Source of the DNA: a virus
Taxonomy: Duplodnaviria > Caudoviricetes
Direction: 5' to 3' (one strand)
Virus record (IMG/VR): IMGVR_UViG_3300025018_000432
Location: 1 to 29,615 of that record
DNA: 29,615 bases
A model generated the notes under the pieces. That model was given only the letters and a program-made list of their open reading frames with translations, searched no databases and had not been told where the DNA came from. Below are positions 3,594-19,884 of this stretch, piece after piece. Numbering within the stretch: position 1 is the stretch's first letter; each line of letters starts with the position of its first letter. The translations under genes and the position numbers were made by a program.

Positions 3594-4250
3594 TTGTCAG
3601 ATAAAAATTACAATATAGCCTTTCAATCCTCTATGATTTTCAACCAGCTAATTCACAAGGATGAATTCTTCTATAAGGTCTTTCCTTTTCTGAACATAGA
3701 ATACTTTTCTGGACCAGAAAAGGCAGTTTTTGCAGCTTTAAAGACCCACTATGATAAGTACGAAAAGCCTGCAACTGCTGAAATGCTTGAGGTGTACCTA
3801 TCCAAAAATAAAAATGTAAATCTAAAACTTTTTGAAGGGGCTATTGGTTACGTAAAGGAACATCTTCATCAAAAGAAAGATATAGACCTAAAATGGATAA
3901 TCGACCAGACTGAGGAATTCTGTCAGACAAAGGCATTGTATAATGCCCTGTCAAAATCCGTTGCAATCTATGATGAGGGTTCAGTTACTGATAAGAATAA
4001 CATTCCTGATATTCTTAATGAAGCATTATCAATATCATTTAATACCGATATTGGTTTGGATTATATTGATGATGCACTTGAAAGATTCAAAAGGTTGAAA
4101 TCCAAAGCTGATAAACTCCCTTTTCTTTGCCCTATAATGAATAACATTACAAAGGGAGGATTTGAGAGAAAAACTGTCAACGCAATATTAGCCGCTTGTG
4201 TTACAGAGGATACTTTGGTTCGTATAAGGATTAGGAAGGTTGACAAGTAG
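3594..4250 (+). CDS. 41: gp41-like replicative helicase, N-terminal part fused to a 17-aa split-intein N-fragment
   Basis: WIIDQTEEFCQTKALYNAL, IPDILNEALSISFNTDIGLDY and NNITKGG match gp41; ends AILAA|CVTEDTLVRIRIRKVDK; TTG start with AAGGA RBS. Confidence 0.9.
   Translation: MSDKNYNIAFQSSMIFNQLIHKDEFFYKVFPFLNIEYFSGPEKAVFAALKTHYDKYEKPATAEMLEVYLSKNKNVNLKLFEGAIGYVKEHLHQKKDIDLKWIIDQTEEFCQTKALYNALSKSVAIYDEGSVTDKNNIPDILNEALSISFNTDIGLDYIDDALERFKRLKSKADKLPFLCPIMNNITKGGFERKTVNAILAACVTEDTLVRIRIRKVDK
4197..4247 (+). mobile_element. Split intein N-fragment (IntN, 17 aa)
   Basis: Block A pattern C-V-x-x-D-T-x-V interrupts the Walker A loop, followed by a stop codon. Confidence 0.85.
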
Positions 4251-4329: not shown

Positions 4330-4713
4330 ATGTATGAAGAATATGAAGAGATAGACGTTCCAATTTCAGACATAGAACGTTTATTGGAAGAAGGTGTTGA
4401 TTTTGACATTAATACCCCAGATGGATGGCAAAAAGCCATAGCTTTTGTTGATAAAGGCGAAATGGACATTTATCATTTAATGAATGATAGAGGAGAAGAA
4501 GTTAAATGCGCTGGTAGACATAAATTTGATACGAATTTTGGATGGCAAACTGCTGAGGATATGGTCGATTGGTTCGGAATTAAAGTGTTGTGTGATGATG
4601 GCTTTTACCATCCATGTAGAGTTGTGCGAGCTGGATATAAACAAAAAGTTGTTGATATATCTATTAACCATCCTAATCATAGGTATTTTACTAACAGAAT
4701 AAGCTCAAAAAAC
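4330..4713 (+). mobile_element. Split intein C-fragment (IntC, 128 aa)
   Basis: TPDGWQ, block B KCAGRHKF, block F VVDISINHPNHRYFTN, block G ISSKN followed by Thr at +1. Confidence 0.87.
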
Positions 4714-5556
4714 ACCAACGTAGGTAAATCTGCCTACATGTGCCATTATGCTGCTGAAATGGTATCACAAGGATATAATGTACTCTATGTATCAATGGAG
4801 ATGGCAGAAGAGAAGCTAGGCACAAGGATCGATGCTAACTTGATGGATGTGGCGATGGATTCTGTTCTTGCCATGTCTGAGTTAGAATTTATGAAAAACA
4901 TTAACCTACTCAAGACCAAAGTAGGGAAACTAATCATCAAAGAATTCCCTACAGCTTCAGTTCATATGGGTCATGTTGAAGCGATGATTCGGGAATTGAA
5001 AAACAAAAAAGGATTTGTCCCTGATGTTGTTTGTCTGGATTATCTTGGTATCTGCTTATCAAGAAGAGTTGGACTCGGAGCTGGTACGTATTTATTTGTA
5101 AAAGCAATTACTGAAGAGTTCAGGGGATTGGCAGTAAAATACAATTTTGTAGGAGTAACTGCTACTCAAGGAACAAGGTCAACAATCGAAGCTAGTGATA
5201 TGAATATGTCCGACACAGGCGATTCTAAAGGTATCAATGATACAGTCGATTTCTTGATGGGTATGATGGCTCCTGAAGAGATAGCTAAAGCAGGATTGAT
5301 GCTGTGTAAGCAATTGAAGTCAAGGTATGATGATGTAAACCGAAAGAAAAGATTTGTCATGACCTTTGATCGCCAGAAAATGCACTTCGAGGAAGCAACT
5401 GATCCTGGGGTTGCTGCTGGTTTCTTGGGTCAGACAGTGGATAATTCAACCGCTCCTGGAGTGATTGATGAGGACAAGCCATTGTTCGATGCTTCAACAG
5501 GAGACAGATATCTTGGGGAAAGGGTAAAAGGAACACTGACAGGAATATCTTTTTAG
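4330..5556 (+). CDS. 41: Split-intein C-fragment fused to the C-terminal part of the gp41-like helicase
   Basis: After ISSKN the sequence continues TNVGKS (Walker A), VLYVSMEMAEE, RIDANL, LIIKEFPT, LDYLGIC, EEFRGLA, TATQ and KQLKSRY, all DnaB/gp41 motifs. Confidence 0.92.
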   Translation: MYEEYEEIDVPISDIERLLEEGVDFDINTPDGWQKAIAFVDKGEMDIYHLMNDRGEEVKCAGRHKFDTNFGWQTAEDMVDWFGIKVLCDDGFYHPCRVVRAGYKQKVVDISINHPNHRYFTNRISSKNTNVGKSAYMCHYAAEMVSQGYNVLYVSMEMAEEKLGTRIDANLMDVAMDSVLAMSELEFMKNINLLKTKVGKLIIKEFPTASVHMGHVEAMIRELKNKKGFVPDVVCLDYLGICLSRRVGLGAGTYLFVKAITEEFRGLAVKYNFVGVTATQGTRSTIEASDMNMSDTGDSKGINDTVDFLMGMMAPEEIAKAGLMLCKQLKSRYDDVNRKKRFVMTFDRQKMHFEEATDPGVAAGFLGQTVDNSTAPGVIDEDKPLFDASTGDRYLGERVKGTLTGISF

Positions 5557-8624: not shown

Positions 8625-8843
8625 ATGGATGAACATAAATTTATTTTGATAGGCCTAGGGGCACTTGCTTGGGCTATTCTAGGGCTTCTGCTCGCCGACA
8701 AATATATGATGTATGAAATGCCTTGGTATAAAAGAATTCTGCTCATTGTAATTGGCGGTCCTTTTCTTTGGACCGCCGGTTCTGTGTACGGCACAATTCG
8801 AGGAATCAATGCTGCATTAGATAAATTTTTTATTGGGAGATAG
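8625..8843 (+). CDS. Small membrane protein
   Basis: ATG at 8625 just after the previous stop; two hydrophobic segments. Confidence 0.6.
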   Translation: MDEHKFILIGLGALAWAILGLLLADKYMMYEMPWYKRILLIVIGGPFLWTAGSVYGTIRGINAALDKFFIGR

Positions 8844-8844
8844 A

Positions 8845-9408
8845 ATGAGAAAAGGCGATTGGATGCAAACTTATACTGGTCTGAAGTTTTATCCTTTGGA
8901 CCCAAGACCAGATGAAATAGACATGTTAGACATCATACACTGCTTGTCCAGGGTATGCAGATACTCTGGTAACACAAATGCCTTTTATTCAGTAGCGGAG
9001 CATTCACTGCTCATGGCGAGACATTTTAAAGAACATGCCAGGATAGCCTTATTACATGATGCTGCTGAGGCATATTTTGGCGATATCCCTCGACCAATAA
9101 AAAATGCCATCCCTGATATCAAGAAATACGAGCACAATCTTTTAGCTATTATTTTCAAGAAATATAGTGTTGGTCCATTGAATGATTCAATACTGTATCT
9201 TATTGAGACAATGGATCTGGAGATGCTCTGGCAAGAGAAGAATCATTACAATGTTATGGGCAATAATAACAAATTTGGTTGGGGAGTAGTTCCTAATTAT
9301 CCTCCTTCCACTAAAATTGATATAAGATGTACTATACCAGAGCTGGTTGAGATTAAATTCAGGGATGCAATTGAAAAGAATTTTAATTTATTTATAAAAA
9401 TGTGTTGA
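8845..9408 (+). CDS. HD-domain phosphohydrolase (YfbR/YfdR-like deoxynucleotidase)
   Basis: TYTG, LSRVCRYSG, YSVAEHS and LLHDAAEAYFGDIPRPIK. Confidence 0.88.
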   Translation: MRKGDWMQTYTGLKFYPLDPRPDEIDMLDIIHCLSRVCRYSGNTNAFYSVAEHSLLMARHFKEHARIALLHDAAEAYFGDIPRPIKNAIPDIKKYEHNLLAIIFKKYSVGPLNDSILYLIETMDLEMLWQEKNHYNVMGNNNKFGWGVVPNYPPSTKIDIRCTIPELVEIKFRDAIEKNFNLFIKMC

Positions 9409-9433
9409 CAAACAAGAAAAAATCCTGTATAAT
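9405..9433 (+). promoter_or_regulatory. Sigma70-type promoter for the queD-queE-folE operon
   Basis: TTGACA 9405-9410, 17 bp, TATAAT 9428-9433. Confidence 0.85.
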
Positions 9434-9484
9434 GTTTATATACAGTAAATAAAGAAGGTATAGGTAGTCAACAGGAGAAAGGAT

Positions 9485-9667
9485 ATGATTGGTTCTGATA
9501 TTGATATAATTATTTTGTGGGTAAGCATGATTACTTTTCTTTGGACAGGTGCTGCTTTTGTTAAGAGGGCAAGAGATGGCAAGCCAGGATCAGCTATAGC
9601 TATTTTGTGTATATGGTCTATATGTAGTTTTTTCATTGCTGCTTTAATGCTTTATAAAATAAATTGA
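9485..9667 (+). CDS. Small membrane protein (60 aa)
   Basis: AGGAGAAAGGA RBS; two hydrophobic segments around a basic loop. Confidence 0.65.
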   Translation: MIGSDIDIIILWVSMITFLWTGAAFVKRARDGKPGSAIAILCIWSICSFFIAALMLYKIN

Positions 9668-9677
9668 GGAGAATAAA

Positions 9678-10823
9678 ATGCAGGATACGTTTTTAGTAAC
9701 AAGGAAGTTGGAGACTGGTCAATGTCCAGTCTGTGATAAAAAAGTAAAATCAGTAATGATACATTTATCCAGAAAAGTGGATGGAAATCATGCCGAATAT
9801 CTCAAAAGCCTGAAATTAGGATTGAGTGGGATCATTATGAATAAATTTCATGAAGGTAAATTTGTTATTGAAATTATTAATGAACTAAAGAATGAAATAG
9901 AAAATATTAATGTATTATTCCATACAGATGTTTCTTTGAATAATTTAATCCGCGAAGTGTATACACAAAATAATGTATCCTCAAGGGATAATGTTTCTAA
10001 AAAAATGAGAGGAGAGAATAATCCTTCCAATGATGTATCTGTTAAGAAAAAAATATCATTGTCAATACATAAATTGTGGGAAGAAGGTGTTTACGATAGC
10101 AGGATTAATAACATGGATTTAACAGCCATGGAGAATCATCATACCTATAAGGAAAGCGATCATTACATTGAAAATTTTGGAATTAACAAATATAATGTTC
10201 TATATCATTATCTGTTTGGTGATGATAAATGTATTAAATGTGATAATGAAACAAGAAAAAGGAATATTCATCATATAGATGAAAATCGAAATAATTTTCT
10301 GCCTTCAAATCTTGAAAATTTATGTGTGCCATGTCATACTACACAGCATTATTCAAGACAAAAAGAACCTTTTTGTACAATAAGTAAGGATTTTTATATA
10401 CCTGCAGCTCATTTTTTGCCAAATCACCCTAAAAGATGTCAATATATACATGGCCATGAATGGAAACTGACAGTCTATATTAAAAAGAGAATAGACAAAA
10501 AAACTGGTATGGTTATGGATTTTTCAGAGCTTAAGAGGGTTGTTAATGAATTTGTTATTGATGAATTAGACCATAATTATTTTAATAATTTTTTAATTAA
10601 TCCTACCGCTGAAAATATTGTGTTTTGGATTTGGGATCAATTAATGTATAATGGATTAAAAGGAATTGATAAAATTGAACTCTGGGAAGCTAAGGATTCT
10701 TTGTGTAGGATTGATAAAAATGACATGTTGGGATATTTTATAAAATCATTCTCAAATAAATTATTTTTTGATAATGAAGGAACCCTTATTTTAAAGGATA
10801 TAATTAAAAAGGAGAATGACTAA
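9678..10823 (+). CDS. queD: Fusion of an HNH homing-endonuclease-like region and QueD (6-carboxytetrahydropterin synthase)
   Basis: N-terminal CPVC...H, HNH motif CIKC...IHHIDENRNNFLPSNLENLCVPCHTTQH; C-terminal QueD motifs AAH, CQYIHGH, GMVMDF, LDH, PTAEN, ELWE. Confidence 0.85.
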   Translation: MQDTFLVTRKLETGQCPVCDKKVKSVMIHLSRKVDGNHAEYLKSLKLGLSGIIMNKFHEGKFVIEIINELKNEIENINVLFHTDVSLNNLIREVYTQNNVSSRDNVSKKMRGENNPSNDVSVKKKISLSIHKLWEEGVYDSRINNMDLTAMENHHTYKESDHYIENFGINKYNVLYHYLFGDDKCIKCDNETRKRNIHHIDENRNNFLPSNLENLCVPCHTTQHYSRQKEPFCTISKDFYIPAAHFLPNHPKRCQYIHGHEWKLTVYIKKRIDKKTGMVMDFSELKRVVNEFVIDELDHNYFNNFLINPTAENIVFWIWDQLMYNGLKGIDKIELWEAKDSLCRIDKNDMLGYFIKSFSNKLFFDNEGTLILKDIIKKEND

Positions 10824-11476
10824 TGGCATTAATCGTAAATGAAATATTTACTTCTTTTCAGGGAGAGGGTGCCTTTATTGGTCGAAAGTCTCTTTTTATT
10901 CGGCTGCAAGGGTGTAATCTAGCTTGTAGCTGGTGTGATTCAAAATACTCCGTTTCTAAACAAGGTGGGATTGAATTATCTTTTCAGGAAATGCTTAATT
11001 ATTACATCAAAGGCGAATTCAATAATGTTGTTATTACTGGCGGCGAGCCTTTGATCCAACAGCATGATCCTGAATTCAATAAGATGATTGATTATTTTAT
11101 CAGCGCTGATAAAACTATCGAAATTGAAACAAATGGTACTATCATACCTGATTTCCCTGGTAAAGATACTGTAATGTTCAATGTGTCACCTAAATTAGAA
11201 AATTCAGGTATGGGAGAACACTTTTCTTATGAAGCCTTGAAATGGTTCGCTGATAATTATCAGCACTTTAAATTTGTTGTTGATCCTTATGATGAAAATT
11301 GCTTAGGCGAAATTTATGCTCTGCAGGATGAATTCAAGATAGAGGATGCAGAGATATACCTTATGGCTGAAGGCGTAACAAAAGAAGAAGTCACAAAAGG
11401 CACTATTGAATTGATGCAGATGGATCATCCTTTCAATGTTACGACAAGAGCACATATTCTCTTTAATGTTAAGTAA
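10823..11476 (+). CDS. queE: 7-carboxy-7-deazaguanine synthase QueE (radical SAM)
   Basis: EIFTSFQGEG, FIRLQGCNLACSWCDS, VITGGEPL, IETNGT, VSPK, FKFVV. Confidence 0.92.
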   Translation: MALIVNEIFTSFQGEGAFIGRKSLFIRLQGCNLACSWCDSKYSVSKQGGIELSFQEMLNYYIKGEFNNVVITGGEPLIQQHDPEFNKMIDYFISADKTIEIETNGTIIPDFPGKDTVMFNVSPKLENSGMGEHFSYEALKWFADNYQHFKFVVDPYDENCLGEIYALQDEFKIEDAEIYLMAEGVTKEEVTKGTIELMQMDHPFNVTTRAHILFNVK

Positions 11477-11485
11477 GGAAATACT

Positions 11486-12091
11486 ATGTTTATTACAAAA
11501 AATAGTCAAGAAATAATTACAAGAGAAGAAAGGATTAAAAAGGTCTCATTCTGGGTAGAAGGAATGATTCGTGATTTGGGATTGGATATGGACTCAATTC
11601 ATCTTAAGGATTCGCCTGAAAGAATTGCTCGGATGTATGTTGATGAAATTTTCTCTGGCATATACAATGATCAACCCAAATTTACTGTGTTTGATAATGC
11701 CAAGAAAGTCGATGAGATGGTATTCTTGGGTGGGATTGACTTGTTCTCTACTTGCAGTCATCATTTCAAGAGTTTCCAGGGCAAAGCGTATATAGCATAT
11801 CTTCCTGGAGACAAGCTTGTTGGTATCTCAAAGCTGGCAAGAATTACTGATTGGTTTGCTCGTCGTCCTCAGGTTCAAGAAGATTTGACTGCTGAAATTG
11901 CGAATTTTCTTGTGGACAAATTACAGCCTAAAGGACTTGGTGTCCATATTACTGCTATTCATAATTGTATCAGGGTACGTGGTGCAAAACAATCTACCTC
12001 TGAAATGAAGACTACAGCATTACGCGGTTGTTTCCGATCCGATAAAACTGTGTCTGATGAATTCATGTGGATGATTAATCAAATGAAATAG
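11486..12091 (+). CDS. folE: GTP cyclohydrolase I FolE
   Basis: SPERIARMY, STCSHH, GISKLAR, RRPQVQEDLT, HNCIRVRG, TTALRG. Confidence 0.94.
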   Translation: MFITKNSQEIITREERIKKVSFWVEGMIRDLGLDMDSIHLKDSPERIARMYVDEIFSGIYNDQPKFTVFDNAKKVDEMVFLGGIDLFSTCSHHFKSFQGKAYIAYLPGDKLVGISKLARITDWFARRPQVQEDLTAEIANFLVDKLQPKGLGVHITAIHNCIRVRGAKQSTSEMKTTALRGCFRSDKTVSDEFMWMINQMK

Positions 12092-12100
12092 GATTTTATA

Positions 12101-12583
12101 ATGAAAAATTTTGATGCTAACCTTGCAAAAGGTAAATATTTTGAGAAGAAAATAAAGCCTTATTTGGATTTGATGAATAAGGCTTATGTTGTTCGGGATA
12201 CTTCGGATACTCATAGAATTATGGGAAAGAAGTATCCCGATTTTGAAATCTTGAAGGATGGAAAAATAAAATTGCTTATTGATGCAAAGTACAAGAAGGC
12301 ATATTATAAAGAAGGTAAGTGGTATCTCCCTGTCTCAATTGATTTCATCAATGATTACATTTTTCATTCTGACCGATTAGGTGTTCCTTGTGCTATTGTG
12401 TTTGGAGTTTCTGCTGAATCAAGAGAGCATAAAGGTAAAGTATTTTTTGTCAAGGACATTAAGAAGGTTCCTTATCTTCTAGTTCCTCAAAACAATGAGC
12501 ATGGCTCTGCCCCTTCTTGTTGGTATGATGTATCCAGTTTAATACCTTGTGACTTCAAATTGAATCCTCCTGAAGAGATATAA
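12101..12583 (+). CDS. PD-(D/E)xK-superfamily nuclease (putative)
   Basis: GKYFE helix, YPDF and IDAKYK fit the E...PD...D/ExK pattern. Confidence 0.6.
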   Translation: MKNFDANLAKGKYFEKKIKPYLDLMNKAYVVRDTSDTHRIMGKKYPDFEILKDGKIKLLIDAKYKKAYYKEGKWYLPVSIDFINDYIFHSDRLGVPCAIVFGVSAESREHKGKVFFVKDIKKVPYLLVPQNNEHGSAPSCWYDVSSLIPCDFKLNPPEEI

Positions 12584-13480: not shown

Positions 13481-13525
13481 AGGAAAAGAGACACAAATTG
13501 ATTTTTGTGTCTCTTTCCTGCTTTT
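13481..13525 (+). terminator. Intrinsic terminator
   Basis: AAAGAGACACAAA / TTTGTGTCTCTTT 13-bp stem directly after the stop, with T-rich tail. Confidence 0.8.
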
Positions 13526-13530
13526 AATGA

Positions 13531-13559
13531 TTGACAAGTGATTCTATATATGTTATACT
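13531..13559 (+). promoter_or_regulatory. Sigma70-type promoter for the dpdA-like pair
   Basis: TTGACA 13531-13536, 17 bp, TG-T-TATACT 13554-13559; AAGGAGG RBS. Confidence 0.85.
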
Positions 13560-13604: not shown

Positions 13605-14828
13605 ATGTTTAAGAAATACATACAACCAATTGAGACAAGAAAGTCAGTATATTTTAATGTTCTGGCTGGCTCGGTGTTTACATCCTTGAATCAAGTAACT
13701 GATGAGGATTTTAATACTGGGAAAATTGTTAATATAACCCAGAGCCCAAGGTGGTTCAATAAGGAAGCAAATCCATACATCTATGATCCTCATGTTCTGG
13801 TTTCTTCTGCTCATTATAGCGGAGTTAAGGATCTACGGGCAAAGATGAAAGCTGATGATGATACGATAATTTTTGTGGACTCAGGAGGATTCCAATTAGC
13901 TACAGGAGTAAAGCCTAAGCACACAAGAGAGAAGGCATTGATTTGGTCAGAAACAAATGGAAACATTTTCCCTATTCTTGACCTTCCTGCAAATACCAAA
14001 TTCTCTCTGCAGGATTCAATTGATTTTAGTGTTGAATCAGCTAAATATTATGCTGATAATAGGACAAATCATGATTGCACTATAATGAATGTGCTGTCCG
14101 CAAAAGATTATAATGGCATGGAAAAGTGGTATAATGCTATTAAAGATTTTCCTTTTGATGGCTGGTGTTATGGTGGCCATGGCAATTTCCTGAAGTCCAT
14201 CATTCAATCAATTTTATTTCTTGAGATGAAAGGTGAATTTAAAAAGACCTCTAATCTGCATATGTTCGGGACAACCTCTTTATCAATAATCCCTTATATC
14301 ATATATGCACAATATTTACTGAACCAGAAAGGGATTGATTGCCAATTGTCCTTTGATTCCAGTTATGCTTTCACATATGCAGGATACGGTAAATATTTCA
14401 TATTTCCTTCATTCAAAGGAATGTCCGCTCTTATCATATCAAACAAATATGATTGGTCAGGCTTAAGTGAATTTAGTCATTTTGGATGTGATTGTCCTGT
14501 ATGTCAAGGCGTTACTGATGTTAAGAAATTATTTGATGGATCGATGGGTTCTCATTTCTATAGCATCATTGGTATACACAATTATATAATGATTGCTCGG
14601 TTCAAAGAAATCATTGAAGGATTGCTTTCAATGAATATCCCTTGCACTGACAATGACCATGGTATATTTGAATCATTGCCCACTGAAATGAAAAACAATT
14701 TTAAATATATGAGAGAGGCGTTTGATGTAATGGGGAAAAAAGGTATCAATATAATCAATGACAAATTTGCCAATTCCGTTGTGAAGAAAGGTCTTGTCAA
14801 TAAAAAAATATCTTCCTTCTTTGGATGA
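13605..14828 (+). CDS. dpdA: TGT-fold guanine transglycosylase, DpdA-like (paralog 1)
   Basis: FVDSGGFQ, PILDLP, LHMFGT, SFDSS and zinc site CDCPVC...HN; folE/queD/queE context. Confidence 0.82.
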   Translation: MFKKYIQPIETRKSVYFNVLAGSVFTSLNQVTDEDFNTGKIVNITQSPRWFNKEANPYIYDPHVLVSSAHYSGVKDLRAKMKADDDTIIFVDSGGFQLATGVKPKHTREKALIWSETNGNIFPILDLPANTKFSLQDSIDFSVESAKYYADNRTNHDCTIMNVLSAKDYNGMEKWYNAIKDFPFDGWCYGGHGNFLKSIIQSILFLEMKGEFKKTSNLHMFGTTSLSIIPYIIYAQYLLNQKGIDCQLSFDSSYAFTYAGYGKYFIFPSFKGMSALIISNKYDWSGLSEFSHFGCDCPVCQGVTDVKKLFDGSMGSHFYSIIGIHNYIMIARFKEIIEGLLSMNIPCTDNDHGIFESLPTEMKNNFKYMREAFDVMGKKGINIINDKFANSVVKKGLVNKKISSFFG

Positions 14829-14833
14829 GGTGA

Positions 14834-16051
14834 ATGATGAAAAATAGAACAGCACACTTTTATAATGTATTAACCGGAACTCTCAACCTACTAGGGAAGA
14901 AAGATTCATATTTTCTTGACCCAGAGACACCAAATTTCAAGAAGAGTCCAAGATGGTATACGAAAGAATCAGACCCTTCATTTTATGAACCAAGAATTCT
15001 TGTTTCTGGTCCTCATAATAGAAACAAGGATGTCTGTTCGGATATTAGTGTAGGAAAGGATACTACTGTGTTTGGTGATTCAGGAGGATTTCAATTAGCA
15101 ACAGGAAAGATATCTCCTCAGGAATGGACATTTGAGACCTCCTTAAATTGGTTGGAAAAGAATGCTAACATTTTTCCTATTCTTGATTGGCCTATAGGTG
15201 GTCTTGCTAAAGATTTAAAAGGTAAGGTGAGCTTCCTTGATGCTATATCTCATACAACAGAGGCAGCTAAATATTTTTATGAGAAGAGAACAAGAGAAGA
15301 CAGAACAATTTTGAATGTACTTTCTTCATCCAGAGCTTCACATATGCAAGGATGGTATGATGGAGTAAAAGATTATAAATTCGATGGTTGGGCTTTTGGT
15401 GGTCATGCTAATCATTTGAAAACCATTCTTGAAGGGATAATGTTTCTGGTCAGTAATGGTGAATTTAATACAGACAAGCCTAGACCTCTGCATGTGTTTG
15501 GTACTACATCTATGGGAGTAATTCCTTATATTGTATATGCGCAACACCTGCTGAATGAAAAGGATATCAACATCCAATTGTCCTTTGATTCTTCCAGTGC
15601 TTCTGCAATGGTGAATTACGGGAATTACATTCAATTTTGTACACCAACAGCAATGACTAATACAGGCGTATCAAACAAATATGATTGGTCTAAATTGAAC
15701 GAATATTCAAGATTTGGTTGCTCCTGTCCAATCTGTAGGGATGTTGATAATATGTCTTTTCTTATGTCCGAAGAAGGTAAAGGACAGTTTTACATGATTA
15801 TAGCAACGCATAATTACTATCAAATGCTGCAATACAAAAGGACATTCGATGGAGTGGTTTCATTAAATTGTCAAGAAGTAAATGACTCATTGCCTTTGGA
15901 ATTGAAAGAAAATTTCAAGATTATGAAAAAGGCTTTTGATGTCATGGGAGAAGGCGGGTTATCAATTCTTGAGAACGGTATCAAAGTGGCAAGAAAGAAA
16001 AACCCAACAGCTAATTCAGGTAAAGGAAAAGGCGTATCAAATTTTTTGTAG
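14834..16051 (+). CDS. dpdA: TGT-fold guanine transglycosylase, DpdA-like (paralog 2)
   Basis: FGDSGGFQ, PILDWP, LHVFGT, SFDSS and CSCPIC...HN; colinear with paralog 1 along its length. Confidence 0.82.
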   Translation: MMKNRTAHFYNVLTGTLNLLGKKDSYFLDPETPNFKKSPRWYTKESDPSFYEPRILVSGPHNRNKDVCSDISVGKDTTVFGDSGGFQLATGKISPQEWTFETSLNWLEKNANIFPILDWPIGGLAKDLKGKVSFLDAISHTTEAAKYFYEKRTREDRTILNVLSSSRASHMQGWYDGVKDYKFDGWAFGGHANHLKTILEGIMFLVSNGEFNTDKPRPLHVFGTTSMGVIPYIVYAQHLLNEKDINIQLSFDSSSASAMVNYGNYIQFCTPTAMTNTGVSNKYDWSKLNEYSRFGCSCPICRDVDNMSFLMSEEGKGQFYMIIATHNYYQMLQYKRTFDGVVSLNCQEVNDSLPLELKENFKIMKKAFDVMGEGGLSILENGIKVARKKNPTANSGKGKGVSNFL

Positions 16052-16058
16052 GAGAAAA

Positions 16059-16457
16059 ATGAAAGTATTTTTAGGCGGTACATGCAATAATTCTAATTGG
16101 CGGTCATGTATCAAGCCATTACTACAGATTGATTATTTTGATCCAGTTGTTGCTGATTGGAACATTGAAGCAATGAAAGAAGAGATTAAACAGAGGGAAG
16201 AATGTGATGTTGTCTTGTATGTCATTACACCAGAATTGACTGGTGTATATTCAATAGCAGAGGCTGTTGATGATTCCAACAAGAGACCAGAGAGATTGAT
16301 TTTTGTCCCGCTGAGAGAATGGAGTTGCTTTAAGTTCAATGATGCTGCATGGAAATCAATGTGTTCAGTCTCTGACCTGATCAAAAGAAACAAAGCAAAG
16401 GTAATCTTCTCCTTAGGTGATGCTGCTCTGGCGTTAAATAGTTGGGAAAGATTGTAA
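16059..16457 (+). CDS. Nucleoside 2-deoxyribosyltransferase-like protein
   Basis: KVFLGGTCNNSNWR, YFDPVVADW, CDVVLYVITP, GVYSIAEA; AGGAG RBS places the start at 16059. Confidence 0.78.
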   Translation: MKVFLGGTCNNSNWRSCIKPLLQIDYFDPVVADWNIEAMKEEIKQREECDVVLYVITPELTGVYSIAEAVDDSNKRPERLIFVPLREWSCFKFNDAAWKSMCSVSDLIKRNKAKVIFSLGDAALALNSWERL

Positions 16458-16465
16458 TTTAATTG

Positions 16466-16530
16466 TTGACAAGAAGCCTCCTTAATGTTATACTCTCTAT
16501 ATAAGATTGATTAATAACATTACAGGAGGT
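16466..16530 (+). promoter_or_regulatory. Sigma70-type early promoter cassette, extended class, with AGGAGG RBS
   Basis: TTGACA 16466-16471, 17 bp, TG-T-TATACT 16489-16494, CTCTATATAAGATTGATT. Confidence 0.85.
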
Positions 16531-16536
16531 TTACCT

Positions 16537-16575
16537 ATGAATATACAGAAAATTTTAGTCTTAGGAGAAAAATAA
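16537..16575 (+). CDS. 12-aa mini-ORF MNIQKILVLGEK coupled to the next gene
   Basis: AGGAGG RBS, ATG 16537, TAA overlapping the next ATG (TAATG). Confidence 0.4.
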   Translation: MNIQKILVLGEK

Positions 16576-17000
16576 TGAGTAAAGAACCTACGTATCATGT
16601 AAGATATGAAACAAGCACTATGGTTTGGGTGACTTTTGAATTTGAAGGCTTCCATAAATACAAGGATGCTGATGATGAAGTTTCATATCTAAGGAAACGC
16701 CATAGACACATTTTTAAGGTCCGTGCTGAAGTAGAAGTCTTCCATGATGACAGGGAAATTGAATTCATAAGCCTGAAGAATTTCCTGCAGCGGTATTCCA
16801 ATCATGTTAATTTGAATAATAAATCTTGTGAGATGCTGTGTGATATTTTTGCTGATGCTATTATTGAAAAGTATAAATTGGCTGAGCTATATGATACCTT
16901 AGGCAAGAAAACAAGAAGGATTATGATTGAGGTGTCTGAGGATGGCGAAAACGGAGCGTATAAAATTTATCATCCATCTATTATAAAGGAAATGGCATAA
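16575..17000 (+). CDS. QueD-like T-fold protein, DpdL-type (candidate CDG decarboxylase)
   Basis: EGFH, LRKRHRHIF in place of the QueD CxxxHGH motif, DREIEF, KSCE, VSEDGENGA. Confidence 0.65.
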   Translation: MSKEPTYHVRYETSTMVWVTFEFEGFHKYKDADDEVSYLRKRHRHIFKVRAEVEVFHDDREIEFISLKNFLQRYSNHVNLNNKSCEMLCDIFADAIIEKYKLAELYDTLGKKTRRIMIEVSEDGENGAYKIYHPSIIKEMA

Positions 17001-17003
17001 CAT

Positions 17004-17927
17004 ATGAATGATTTTAAAAGTGGAGAAGTTTTTAACACAAAGTTGAATTTTCCTCAGATTTATCAAATTGAATTAACAGAAAAGTGCAATCTAAACTGTC
17101 CTATGTGTATCAATGATCGTATTGAACACAAAATACACGCGGAAAGCACTCTCCTTGACACCGTAGTGAATAACGGATACCTACGCAACACATTGTATAC
17201 GGAACTTCAATTCTCTGGTGAGCCTACATTATCGCCTATTTTAGAGTATGCTATTGATTCTATCCATTCACAGAATACTTTAGTAGGGTTGTCAACTAAT
17301 CTTACCACTATTAATCAGCCTGGTATGATTGAAATTTTAAATAAACTGGACTGCATTACTATTTCCGTTGATTCTTATGATAAAGAAACATATGAGAAAT
17401 CCAGATTCCCTGCGAAATTCAGTGCCTTTAAAGATAATCTTGAAAAGGCAGTATACTTTCTTAGCAATCCGCTGATTCAATTACAATTAATAAAAACAGA
17501 ATGGACTAAGGATTTATTTGAGAAATCCAAAGAAAAGTTGACTGCTGAATATGATTGGTTAAGCAATGTGATTATTCGTGAGGTTGAGGATTGTTTTGTT
17601 GGATATCATGAAAATGGAGAGAAGAAAGTCAATAAACAAATGTGCTTGAATCCTTTTATTGCTGTGAGTATCAAAGCTGATGGTACTGTTGTTCCTTGTT
17701 GTTTTGATTTCTTCAAAAATTTGCCTTTAGGTAATATTCTTAAAGGCGATAATCTACTTGATATTTGGAATGCTGATGATACAGCATTGGATTATTTAAG
17801 AGAAGCCCACAGATTTCAGGAAGGTCTTCCGAATAAATGTAAAGAGTGTTATGCTCGGTCACCAATTACATTTATGAACAATGAGTTGATACCTTCTATT
17901 ATTCGTTATAAATTAGGAAAGGTATGA
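17004..17927 (+). CDS. Radical SAM enzyme with SPASM/twitch domain
   Basis: IELTEKCNLNCPMC, SGEPTL, STN, ISVDS; C-terminal CLNPF...IKADGTVVPCC...LGNI...CKEC. Confidence 0.9.
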   Translation: MNDFKSGEVFNTKLNFPQIYQIELTEKCNLNCPMCINDRIEHKIHAESTLLDTVVNNGYLRNTLYTELQFSGEPTLSPILEYAIDSIHSQNTLVGLSTNLTTINQPGMIEILNKLDCITISVDSYDKETYEKSRFPAKFSAFKDNLEKAVYFLSNPLIQLQLIKTEWTKDLFEKSKEKLTAEYDWLSNVIIREVEDCFVGYHENGEKKVNKQMCLNPFIAVSIKADGTVVPCCFDFFKNLPLGNILKGDNLLDIWNADDTALDYLREAHRFQEGLPNKCKECYARSPITFMNNELIPSIIRYKLGKV

Positions 17928-18808
17928 AAAAAATAATTGCCTGTATAATATCTTACTTTGGTGAAGGAGAAATAAGAGAAAAACGCCTTGAGATGCACTG
18001 GAAGCAATTAGAATGGATAAAGGAGATTCCTATATTTGAAAGCATCAACATTCTTGCTATGGAATATACCGAAGAGGAAATACAGACCTTTAAAGATTTT
18101 GACCCAAGAATAAATCTCATTCATTATGATAAAAAAATGCCTCAAGGCATTGCAAGGAATATTCTCCTTAAGGATAATGTATATAAATCTAATACGGACT
18201 GGTGTCTATTTCTGGATAATGATTCCTCTCTTTACAATCAGCATATGTCAGGAATTAATTTCTTTAAGGAATTATGTGAAACTAACATGGATAAGTTGAA
18301 ACATGTTGACATAATAGTTCCTATTGATCCTGTGCAGGAGCCTTTTACTGCTGAATACATGAAAAATAAAACCACTATAGATAATAATATTGTGCTGAAA
18401 AGTAATCCTGGGTTGAAAACCAGTTTCTTTGTTATGAAGAATTTTTATAAACACCACAGTATCCCGATGTATTTTGATGAACGGTTTATTATGCTTGAGG
18501 ATCTTGAGTTGGCTTGCCAATGTGCCTTCCTGGGGTATGGTGTGTACAAGACAAAGAATATGGTCCTCAAGGAATACGGAAAAGGCCTGAGCACTCTTCC
18601 TTATGATGAAAATGGTGGAAGGAAAGCATTTAATGATTTTTGGGCTCTTGAGATATACAACAAATGGAAAGCTTCTGGCATGACAATCAAGGATGGCAAA
18701 GCTGAGCCTATAAAATTCATACGAAAATTCTACACAAGCAGCCAGAAGCCGAAAAAAATCATTATCACGAAAGGAAATAAAAGTACACCTCTGGGTAATT
18801 TCTTTTGA
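17924..18808 (+). CDS. GT-A fold (family 2-like) glycosyltransferase
   Basis: GIARNILL, WCLFLDND (DxD), FDERFIMLEDLEL; ATGA overlap with the radical SAM gene. Confidence 0.75.
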   Translation: MKKIIACIISYFGEGEIREKRLEMHWKQLEWIKEIPIFESINILAMEYTEEEIQTFKDFDPRINLIHYDKKMPQGIARNILLKDNVYKSNTDWCLFLDNDSSLYNQHMSGINFFKELCETNMDKLKHVDIIVPIDPVQEPFTAEYMKNKTTIDNNIVLKSNPGLKTSFFVMKNFYKHHSIPMYFDERFIMLEDLELACQCAFLGYGVYKTKNMVLKEYGKGLSTLPYDENGGRKAFNDFWALEIYNKWKASGMTIKDGKAEPIKFIRKFYTSSQKPKKIIITKGNKSTPLGNFF

Positions 18809-18833
18809 CAAATAAATGACAATGTTGTATAAT
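18805..18833 (+). promoter_or_regulatory. Sigma70-type promoter
   Basis: TTGACA 18805-18810, 17 bp, TATAAT 18828-18833. Confidence 0.8.
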
Positions 18834-18852
18834 GAAAAGAAAAGGAGAAATT

Positions 18853-19884
18853 ATGAAAATATTTGTGGTTGATATTGAGAATGTCCCTACAAGATACACA
18901 GCACAATGGAAGAAATGGTACCCAGAATTTTTCAACATGGAAGGGTACGAATTTCAATGGATTGGGTATGATGATGTATGTATTGCTAAGAAGGATGAAT
19001 TCTTGTCCTTCATTCCTTCTAATAGATATAAAGCTAAACAGACACAGGAACTGGCTAATCTACTTGATAATGGATTAATCAATGAAGGAGATATGATTCT
19101 ATTTCTTGATGCATGGCACCCAGGGATTATTAGTGTCAGGCAAATGCTTCTGTCATATGATAAAAATGTTAAACTGGCTGGCTTCTGGCATGCGGGTTCT
19201 TGGGATCCTCATGATATGCTAGGCAGAAATACCAGATACTTTATTGATTTTGAAGCTGCTGTTCACAATTGCTTGGATTATAATTTATTTGCTACTAATT
19301 TCTCAAGTGATTTATTTATTATCCAGATGTCAATTTATAATCATCTGGTTGATATCAAGAAAAATCATATCGTAGGTTTCCTTTATGACATTCATCATTT
19401 GAGCTCAAACATACACAAGAAGAAACAAATTCTTTTTCCCCATAGGATTGCTCCTGAGAAATGTCCTTACATGTTTGATGAGTTGGAGAGGTATTGTGAA
19501 AACACAGGTCGATTGCAAAATTTCTCATTCATCAAAACTATGGATGCAACCAAAAATAAAGCTGAGTATCATACACTTCTTGCTGAATCAAAATATGCTG
19601 TGTCCTTTGCAAAGCAGGAAACATTTGGTATCTCAATGATGGAGGCAGCTTTCTCAGGGTGCGTACCAATAGTGCCTAATTGTCTGTCCTATGTAGAATT
19701 ATATCTTGATGATCTGCGATATGATCATATGCAAATATCAAGGGACACAATTTATGAAGAGATAGTCTCCAAAATAGAGGCTATGGAGCATAGCAAGTAT
19801 CCTATTTTTTCCGCTCAATACAAATTGATGGATTACATCAACGGCTCAAAATTCTCCAATTTTCTTTCAGTAATAAAGGCTTGA
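18853..19884 (+). CDS. GT-B fold (family 4-like) glycosyltransferase
   Basis: FPHRIAPEK and QETFGISMMEAAFSGCVPIVP (E-x7-E signature); FWHAGSWDP; AAGGAG RBS puts the start at 18853. Confidence 0.82.
   Translation: MKIFVVDIENVPTRYTAQWKKWYPEFFNMEGYEFQWIGYDDVCIAKKDEFLSFIPSNRYKAKQTQELANLLDNGLINEGDMILFLDAWHPGIISVRQMLLSYDKNVKLAGFWHAGSWDPHDMLGRNTRYFIDFEAAVHNCLDYNLFATNFSSDLFIIQMSIYNHLVDIKKNHIVGFLYDIHHLSSNIHKKKQILFPHRIAPEKCPYMFDELERYCENTGRLQNFSFIKTMDATKNKAEYHTLLAESKYAVSFAKQETFGISMMEAAFSGCVPIVPNCLSYVELYLDDLRYDHMQISRDTIYEEIVSKIEAMEHSKYPIFSAQYKLMDYINGSKFSNFLSVIKA

Follow-up and report, generated by a model that had tools for sequence, protein, structure and literature searches.

Among the described systems of phage 7-deazaguanine DNA modification, that of Cellulophaga phage phiST comprises FolE, QueD, QueE, DpdL and DpdA3 (PMC10516641). 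The locus considered here is a tandem pair of DpdA-like genes (A and B) in a stretch of 29,615 nucleotides (the window) from the Caudoviricetes record IMGVR_UViG_3300025018_000432. It has pathway genes like those of phiST, shares the motif of DpdL and has no QueC in the window. However, phiST has a single DpdA3 of 259 aa without a CxCxxC site, whereas two zinc-bearing enzymes of about 405 aa are found here, together with radical SAM and glycosyltransferase-like genes that go beyond the phiST system. The nearest homologue in an isolate is QCG76197 of Pseudomonas phage PA5oct (tblastn E 3e-6; family profile E 2e-56), listed as DpdA3 in DS1 of Cui et al. Its gene adjoins a glycosyltransferase-1 (GT1)-like gene and DpdL, but the protein is a single copy of 540 aa, lacks CxCxxC and is less than 30% identical to A and B. 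PA5oct DNA is reported to resist restriction enzymes, which was read as modified G in GA and/or GG (PMC12191111).

More distant are the DpdA2 enzymes of Vibrio phage nt-1 and Acidovorax phage ACP17, which share the DSGG, ILD-type and YDS/FDS motifs with A and B but are single copies; the ACP17 protein has no CxCxxC, and the nt-1 model reaches a template modelling (TM) score of 0.48. The DpdA of Salmonella Montevideo (PDB 7ui4) has H181-G182 where A and B have Ser-Ala and Ser-Ser, is monomeric and is reported to require DpdB (PMC10164549), a family without a match among the 30 window proteins scanned. The side-by-side arrangement of A and B is real, and it is rare within a kind of DNA modification that is already known.

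Two intact DpdA-like genes in tandem

Gene A (positions 13605..14828, + strand) encodes a zinc-bearing DpdA-like transglycosylase of 407 aa with the fold of tRNA-guanine transglycosylase (TGT), and gene B (14834..16051, + strand) its paralogue of 405 aa, or 404 aa if the second ATG is the start, as it may be. They are separated by 5 nt, and a Shine-Dalgarno-like GAGGTG overlaps the stop codon of A. The original prediction had read the same two open reading frames as diverged DpdA/TGT paralogues, neither of them degenerate, and this is confirmed: every motif that it quoted is present, and both proteins have the three active-site aspartates (D92, D126 and D251 in A; D82, D118 and D252 in B, by alignment), invariant in 100/100 family rows, and the four zinc ligands of CxCxxC...H (C295/C297/C300/H325 in A; C296/C298/C301/H326 in B). 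Its statement that all catalytic residues are kept needs one correction, since A has Ser-Ala, and B has Ser-Ser, where Zymomonas mobilis TGT has Q203-G204 and Salmonella DpdA has H181-G182. Judged from the alignment, this serine is a subfamily trait; the position is Ser in 29/100 family rows, Gln in 40 and His in 31. The predicted structure of A (predicted local distance difference test, pLDDT, 88.5) matches TGT with E 1.6e-10, and fold comparison gives a TGT-type TIM barrel whose nearest solved folds include tRNA TGTs. Both proteins are likely to be DNA guanine transglycosylases.

A and B are 43% identical over 411 columns (BLASTP E 1e-113). Since their codon-aligned nucleotides agree at 648/1170 positions and their fourfold third positions at 17/39 (chance expectation 0.33), the split is old and an assembly repeat is ruled out as its source; by sequence, the pair arose long ago, through either duplication or lateral gain. 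Moreover, 21 kb of the same region is found in a second assembly (L085) at 99.97% identity.

The family profile matches ACP17 DpdA2 with E 1e-14 (hhalign 97%), far below its match to the PA5oct protein, and does not match the phiST DpdA3 prototype CGPG_00065 (hmmsearch E 0.25; hhalign 3.8%). Because of these scores, and because the CxCxxC site is absent from the phiST, PA5oct and ACP17 proteins, A and B appear to belong to an unnamed zinc-bearing branch, presumably of DpdA-like function, that is not filed under DpdA1-4. Membership of bDpdA/DpdA1 was rejected, as the H181 equivalent is Ser in both; DpdA2 is likewise reported to lack the conserved histidine. The Pfam DpdA model gave no match for A or B at E 0.01, and tblastn with either protein found no DpdA2 phage of the nt-1/ACP17 list. 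Identity with bacterial or archaeal tRNA TGT was also rejected: TIGR00432 scores 19.8 and 18.5 bits against a cut-off of 350, and an NCBIfam scan of A and B matched no bacterial TGT model. The family has 1545 representatives in metagenomes at E 0.001, and its zinc site is common to about 89/100 relatives, most of them single-copy.

Rarity and conservation of the pair

Tandem pairs did not turn out to be routine in described dpdA phages, an outcome that would have spoken against the original prediction. By our own count, two DpdA are listed for 1/76 of the DpdA-bearing genomes in DS1 of Cui et al.; this is Mycobacterium phage Knocker, whose two genes lie in one cluster but are assigned to different subfamilies (DpdA1 and DpdA4), the accession numbers placing QueF between the two. 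No tandem DpdA paralogues were found described in the literature searched, subscription papers lying outside its coverage. Of the 235 loci fetched, which include some contigs in duplicate, 224 match the profile once, two not at all and nine more than once. These nine are the present genome, two single genes in two pieces and six loci from one distant virus lineage with two or three copies (L149, L183, L184, L154, L188 and L200). Among the single-match loci, 132 are flanked by 1.5 kb or more on either side and form 56 clusters at 90% identity, and each of five large related records (68-167 kb) showed one match when searched over its full length. In the distant lineage, L149 carries three tandem intact DpdA-like genes (8709-12189; 39-52% identity) and the near-identical strain L200 two (1-1823), the middle gene being missing. 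The L149 virus, which has a QueC-like gene and in which we read clamp-like and clamp-loader-like genes, is possibly archaeal.

Four other contigs appear to carry both A and B, as A-type and B-type relatives are matched in contig size and source in four cases (7191, 3572, 24746 and 20326 bases). This putative pairing is supported by a tree of 48 rows, picked from 393 as the closest relatives and outgroups, because support is 100/100 for the A-type as well as for the B-type group and the branching of the pairs agrees between them: the window groups with the 7191-base contig in both clades, and the 3572-base with the 20326-base contig at 100/99 in the A clade and 80/90 in the B clade. The A/B identities of the intact pairs are 90.7/87.4, 68.2/68.2 and 67.5/68.8%, and the pocket loops are identical at 27-28/30 positions within each clade. 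Because of these matched divergence rates and conserved loops, both active sites are, as far as sequence can tell, long kept under selection. In A-type P0003, from the 3572-base contig, Asp replaces the first Gly of the pocket GG loop, which is Gly in 96/100 family rows; its presumed B partner is intact.

The pair is not obligatory, as one relative has a lone B-like enzyme and another has A with a dead B. The former, the close relative L086, has the same operon (QueD, QueE, FolE, DpdA, DpdL, radical SAM and GT1-like) with one B-like gene only, which falls on the B side at 100/99, the approximately unbiased (AU) test leaving the alternative placement standing (p 0.064). Furthermore, no A-type match from a contig of equal size was found for B-type P0178, which lies on a 52.6-kb contig.

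Differences between the two enzymes

The pocket is the part in which A and B are most alike: 23/30 residues are identical in the pocket loops versus 130/301 elsewhere, with loop windows drawn after the alignment had been seen. At the positions matching C158, G229, G230, L231, V233 and M260 of Z. mobilis TGT, A and B share their residues (P, G, G, H, N and F), and the single differing position near the 7-substituent (G vs A) varies freely inside each clade. The Gly-rich loop is reported to set the choice of 7-substituent in TGT and DpdA. Since the pocket is so alike, the same base is favoured over different bases, and the earlier suggestion of two bases, such as 7-carboxy-7-deazaguanine (CDG) and 7-deazaguanine (DG), finds no support in the residues around the 7-substituent. 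The loop differences picked out originally are mostly not diagnostic of the clades either, as members of one clade already differ in what is inserted behind ILD and in which residue follows GGH.

Twenty-two differences between A and B are fixed in the clades, and 91 columns are fixed and equal. Six of the 22 fall within a stretch of 23 residues (254-276) that directly follows the nucleophile (Y254/S, F256/S, A259/V, F265/I, F270/P and L276/T), where the helix has Y-A-F in A and S-A-S in B, and three distinguish S68-A69-Y71 from G59-P60-N62 (SAHY vs GPHN) in the first barrel loop. The clade-fixed changes cluster on a helix and a hairpin predicted to face the nucleic acid. In Salmonella DpdA, Phe265 of the same helix region is reported to face DNA and to be essential (PMC10164549); its candidate counterpart Y261/Y262 is kept in A and B and is F, Y or W in 79/100 rows. 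The changes in helix and hairpin may alter the neighbouring bases that are read. Together with pocket loops that are largely identical, they lend indirect support to another earlier suggestion, that A and B recognise different sequence contexts.

Predicted dimer and a degenerate relative

Structure prediction of A with B gave a score of 0.88, the best of three controls reaching 0.00; the mark used is reached by 116/157 solved pairs and 2/215 mismatched pairs. At least 94% of the contacts recur between runs, the pLDDT of the partner is at least 88, and the predicted contact is symmetric, the zinc subdomain and hairpin of each protein lying against the zinc helix of the other. This zinc subdomain to zinc subdomain interface is unlike the contact described for Z. 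mobilis TGT, in which helix E meets Phe92'/loop-helix 47-62 (bioRxiv 2020.09.01.277731). Because TGT dimers have been solved, the A and B alignments shared 92/100 rows and close cousins of true partners pass such a test, the score is general evidence for dimers: at most, the family may dimerise and A and B may be compatible.

The pair recalls eukaryotic QTRT1/QTRT2 in having two TGT paralogues, a predicted heterodimer and a zinc site that is kept in the degenerate B of a relative, but both copies in the window keep their catalytic residues and DNA is the probable substrate. QTRT2 is reported to keep the barrel and the zinc site and to lose the catalytic residues (PMC6165067). No subunit without catalytic residues is present in the window, and the only such case is P0080, a B-type protein with an open frame of 297 aa from the 20326-base contig, a size shared with A-type P0005. 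An in-frame deletion has removed the catalytic half of the barrel (B residues ~81-183) along with the DSGG and ILD aspartates, and the nucleophile is replaced, FDSS having become FSSS. Of the 91 invariant columns, 47 are unchanged, among them those of the four zinc ligands, 17 carry other residues and 27 fall in the deletion; the termini are kept as well. Changes affect 10/20 of the 64 non-deleted invariant columns in active-site loops vs 7/44 elsewhere (Fisher p 0.007, with post hoc windows). In 2000 simulations, random decay left no stop in 0.3% of cases at 27% amino-acid change, 2% at 20% and 6% at 15%. P0080 also keeps 43/44 predicted interface positions, although their identity to the sister protein (25/43) is no better than that of the rest (124/206). 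By analogy, this one protein record resembles QTRT2. The heterodimer that had been proposed for A and B is favoured by the prediction and by P0080, and disfavoured by the lone B-like gene in the L086 operon.

C-terminal motifs and the substrate

A ends in ISSFFG (14808..14825, + strand), a candidate sliding-clamp motif at the end of a low-confidence tail, and B in VSNFL (16034..16048, + strand), a weaker candidate. The form [IL]xxFF ends 7/7 A-clade proteins, and FF is kept in 0/7 B-clade proteins. A loose pattern of this motif is found in 4/47 window genes (A, B, a GT2-like gene and one other, three of them in the cluster) and in 46/100 family rows. The tail of A resembles SLDFLF, the clamp motif on the flexible tail of T4 polymerase (PMC12746103; PMC2988020), and both tails may bind the clamp. 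A split between DNA and tRNA substrates, which had been considered, is disfavoured, since the C-terminal motif is of clamp type in both proteins and the tRNA TGT models score far too low for either of them. Moreover, K264, D267, R286 and R289, which we take to be the U33/U35 readers of bacterial TGT, have no equivalents in A or B. Because the pockets are alike, the fixed differences cluster where the fold is predicted to face the nucleic acid and both tails are of clamp type, DNA substrates, the same base and different contexts are favoured.

Gene neighbourhood and 7-deazaguanine pathway

From its replication genes, we take the window to come from an uncultured phage of the T4-like kind; these genes include those for a RecA/UvsX-like protein, a DnaB-like helicase, a primase and an ATP-dependent ligase; the estimated completeness of the record is 13%. 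The cluster, in which all features given with coordinates are on the + strand, runs in the order QueD, QueE, FolE, an unknown 160-aa protein, a P-loop kinase, A, B, a nucleoside deoxyribosyltransferase-like protein, DpdL, a radical SAM/SPASM protein and two glycosyltransferase-like proteins. QueD (9678..10823; TIGR03367 over its cut-off at residues 235-322) has an N-terminal extension of ~230 aa and is followed by a QueE-like radical SAM protein (CDG synthase; 10823..11476; phrog_2076, E 8.6e-46) and by FolE (GTP cyclohydrolase I; 11486..12091; PF01227, E 3.6e-54). The DpdL homologue (16575..17000; tblastn E 1e-6 with phiST CGPG_00067 and 5e-19 with ACP17), a proposed CDG decarboxylase, has the published motif LxxxHRHxF (PMC10516641). 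A DpdL-type pathway is thus recognisable, and the 7-deazaguanine synthesis genes FolE, QueD, QueE and DpdL stand alongside the pair. QueC has no match in the record, whose completeness is put at 13%, and no tRNA gene was found within the window.

A terminator-like hairpin (13485..13516) and a promoter-like TTGACA-17-TATACT (13531..13559), one of the repeated promoter-like words of the phage, lie upstream of A, both as consensus matches only. This site and another at 16466, likewise a consensus match, enclose A, B and the nucleoside 2-deoxyribosyltransferase-like gene (16059..16457; PF15891, E 2.6e-9), the third gene of a putative A-B transcript, which was not found in the fetched related loci. 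The promoter-like repeat, followed by CTTTATATAAGAT, occurs at at least nine intergenic sites between 20 and 29167 of the window.

The radical SAM/SPASM gene (17004..17927) is also present in the single-copy relative L086. The weak GT2-like gene (17924..18808; TIGR01556, E 4.7e-4, far below the cut-off), whose product has the clamp-type end LGNFF, is absent from L086. The GT1-like gene (18832..19884) accompanies DpdL in 45/46 fetched DpdL-bearing loci, the sole exception being phiST, where 2'-deoxy-7-deazaguanosine (dDG) was measured. Since the GT1-like gene tracks DpdL in this way, most DpdL phages may carry a base with additional modification, and the final base is perhaps not plain dDG.

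The QueD extension holds a Cys/His-rich HNH-like stretch with a weak NCBIfam IscB match at 178-230 and is possibly an inserted mobile element; a comparable extension is found on FolE in L200. The replicative helicase lies in two open reading frames (3594-4250 and 4330-5556), with a GIY-YIG gene upstream on the - strand. Because the first of them ends near 'ACV' and the second has 'SSKNT' ahead of the DnaB domain, the split suggests an intein with a break. The CpG odds ratio is 0.48 for the whole window, 0.88 for L086 and 0.62 for the phiST locus.

Explanations for two copies

The reading that we tentatively favour, and rate a little short of even, is that A and B both swap G in new phage DNA for the same CDG/DG-type base, move with the clamp, are able to pair and differ in the contexts that they read. 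It extends what is observed in fold prediction, residues, gene context, age and conservation to a presumed activity, base, motif choice, clamp binding and dimer. By analogy with Salmonella DpdA and TGT, the FDSS aspartate would attack the sugar and the DSGG aspartate would serve as acid and base while guanine leaves; in Salmonella DpdA, these roles of the aspartates are described, and D95A and D256A lose activity (PMC10164549). The incoming base would be CDG from FolE-QueD-QueE, or DG after DpdL, and may undergo further modification through the nearby radical SAM and glycosyltransferase-like genes. Each of the two enzymes would travel with the sliding clamp of the phage by means of its C-terminal motif, which has the canonical form in A, and they would dimerise through their zinc subdomains, mixed A:B dimers being plausible from the models. 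With both copies retained, a wider range of sites would be protected; single DpdA enzymes are reported to differ in motif, with GA for iggy and GA/GGC for CAjan (PMC10484667). Several points weigh against this reading. For DpdA3 enzymes of the phiST type, a single gene is reported to account for the replacement of all G, so limits of context perhaps do not hold here, and single-copy relatives manage without a partner. The helix after the nucleophile is highly variable across the whole family, so its differences are perhaps drift. Salmonella DpdA is monomeric according to small-angle X-ray scattering (PMC10164549), and the dimer prediction may have passed on a homodimer signal of the family. 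Finally, the four other pairs are deduced from equal contig size and source, and P0178 has no such A-type match.

A heterodimer of the QTRT1/QTRT2 kind in the making is unlikely but credible. In it, A would be the main catalytic, clamp-bound subunit and B mainly a binding partner with optional catalysis of its own. This would account for P0080, which lost its aspartates and kept all zinc ligands and 43/44 interface positions, with changes concentrated in active-site loops and an open frame that random decay would rarely leave (0.3-6%). The A:B model also passed (0.88), QTRT2 itself keeps barrel and zinc site while losing catalytic residues (PMC6165067), and bacterial TGT is reported to act as two subunits on one tRNA. 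However, the pocket of B is kept at 27-28/30 in the intact lineages compared, the P0080 interface is no better kept (25/43) than the rest (124/206), L086 has a lone B-like gene, and there is one dead copy, known as a protein record only. We consider it quite unlikely that the two enzymes are redundant insurance, inserting one and the same base at sites that coincide or overlap, with a second copy that adds density or backs up the first. The model would be the alpha- and beta-glucosyltransferases of T4, likewise a rare DNA-modifying pair with unequal clamp binding, although with another chemistry and two known linkages; each is reported to be sufficient against restriction-modification, the second mattering only under combined defences (PMC13216743). 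Single copies are indeed the rule, and copy number is fluid in the second lineage, with three in L149 and two in the near-identical L200. Dosage alone, however, needs no 22 clade-fixed differences held across ~68%-identical lineages, and since two genes of 1.2 kb have been retained for long while diverging at matched rates, each is likely to contribute something of its own.

It is improbable that the bases inserted by A and B differ, such as CDG in one case and DG or host-derived preQ0 (7-cyano-7-deazaguanine) in the other, to give a mosaic genome. The six pocket positions matched to Z. mobilis are the same in both, the sole differing one varies within clades, and it is the Gly-rich loop that is reported to set the choice of 7-substituent in TGT and DpdA. 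The cluster could nevertheless supply both CDG and DG, shifts of DpdA specificity and promiscuity of DpdA2 have been reported, and T4 makes two linkages with two enzymes (PMC13216743). Very improbable is the action of one copy on DNA and of the other on tRNA, to which one could relate the TGT-like zinc site of A and B, absent from the DpdA of phiST, PA5oct and ACP17, and the tRNA TGTs among the nearest solved folds. The zinc site is, however, shared by ~89/100 mostly single-copy relatives, the archaeal TGT model gives 18-20 bits against a cut-off of 350 bits and no bacterial one matches, both tails are of clamp type, the window has no tRNA gene, and the positions that we take to read U33/U35 (K264, D267, R286 and R289) are absent from both.

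Significance

It is conceivable, if somewhat unlikely, that phages replay the QTRT1/QTRT2 route on DNA, a clamp-tethered DpdA dimer having been duplicated into a two-site A:B heterodimer that reads different contexts, with B reduced to a dead scaffold in one lineage. If this were true, all three stages (single, both active and one dead) would survive among relatives. Phage DpdA motifs are reported for only a few enzymes, and tests of DpdA3 and DpdA4 in E. coli are reported to have failed. Two enzymes that occur together in nature, nearly identical in their pockets but different on the surfaces that face the nucleic acid, offer a comparison for finding the determinants of motif choice, which are relevant to site-specific DNA labelling. 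Furthermore, the clamp-type tail found in 46/100 family rows suggests a route to DNA modification without the DpdB ATPase. The interest of this finding rests on a natural series, formed by a single-copy relative, the twin active pair and a relative with a dead B, which bears on how a homodimer may become a heterodimer of a catalytic and a non-catalytic subunit.

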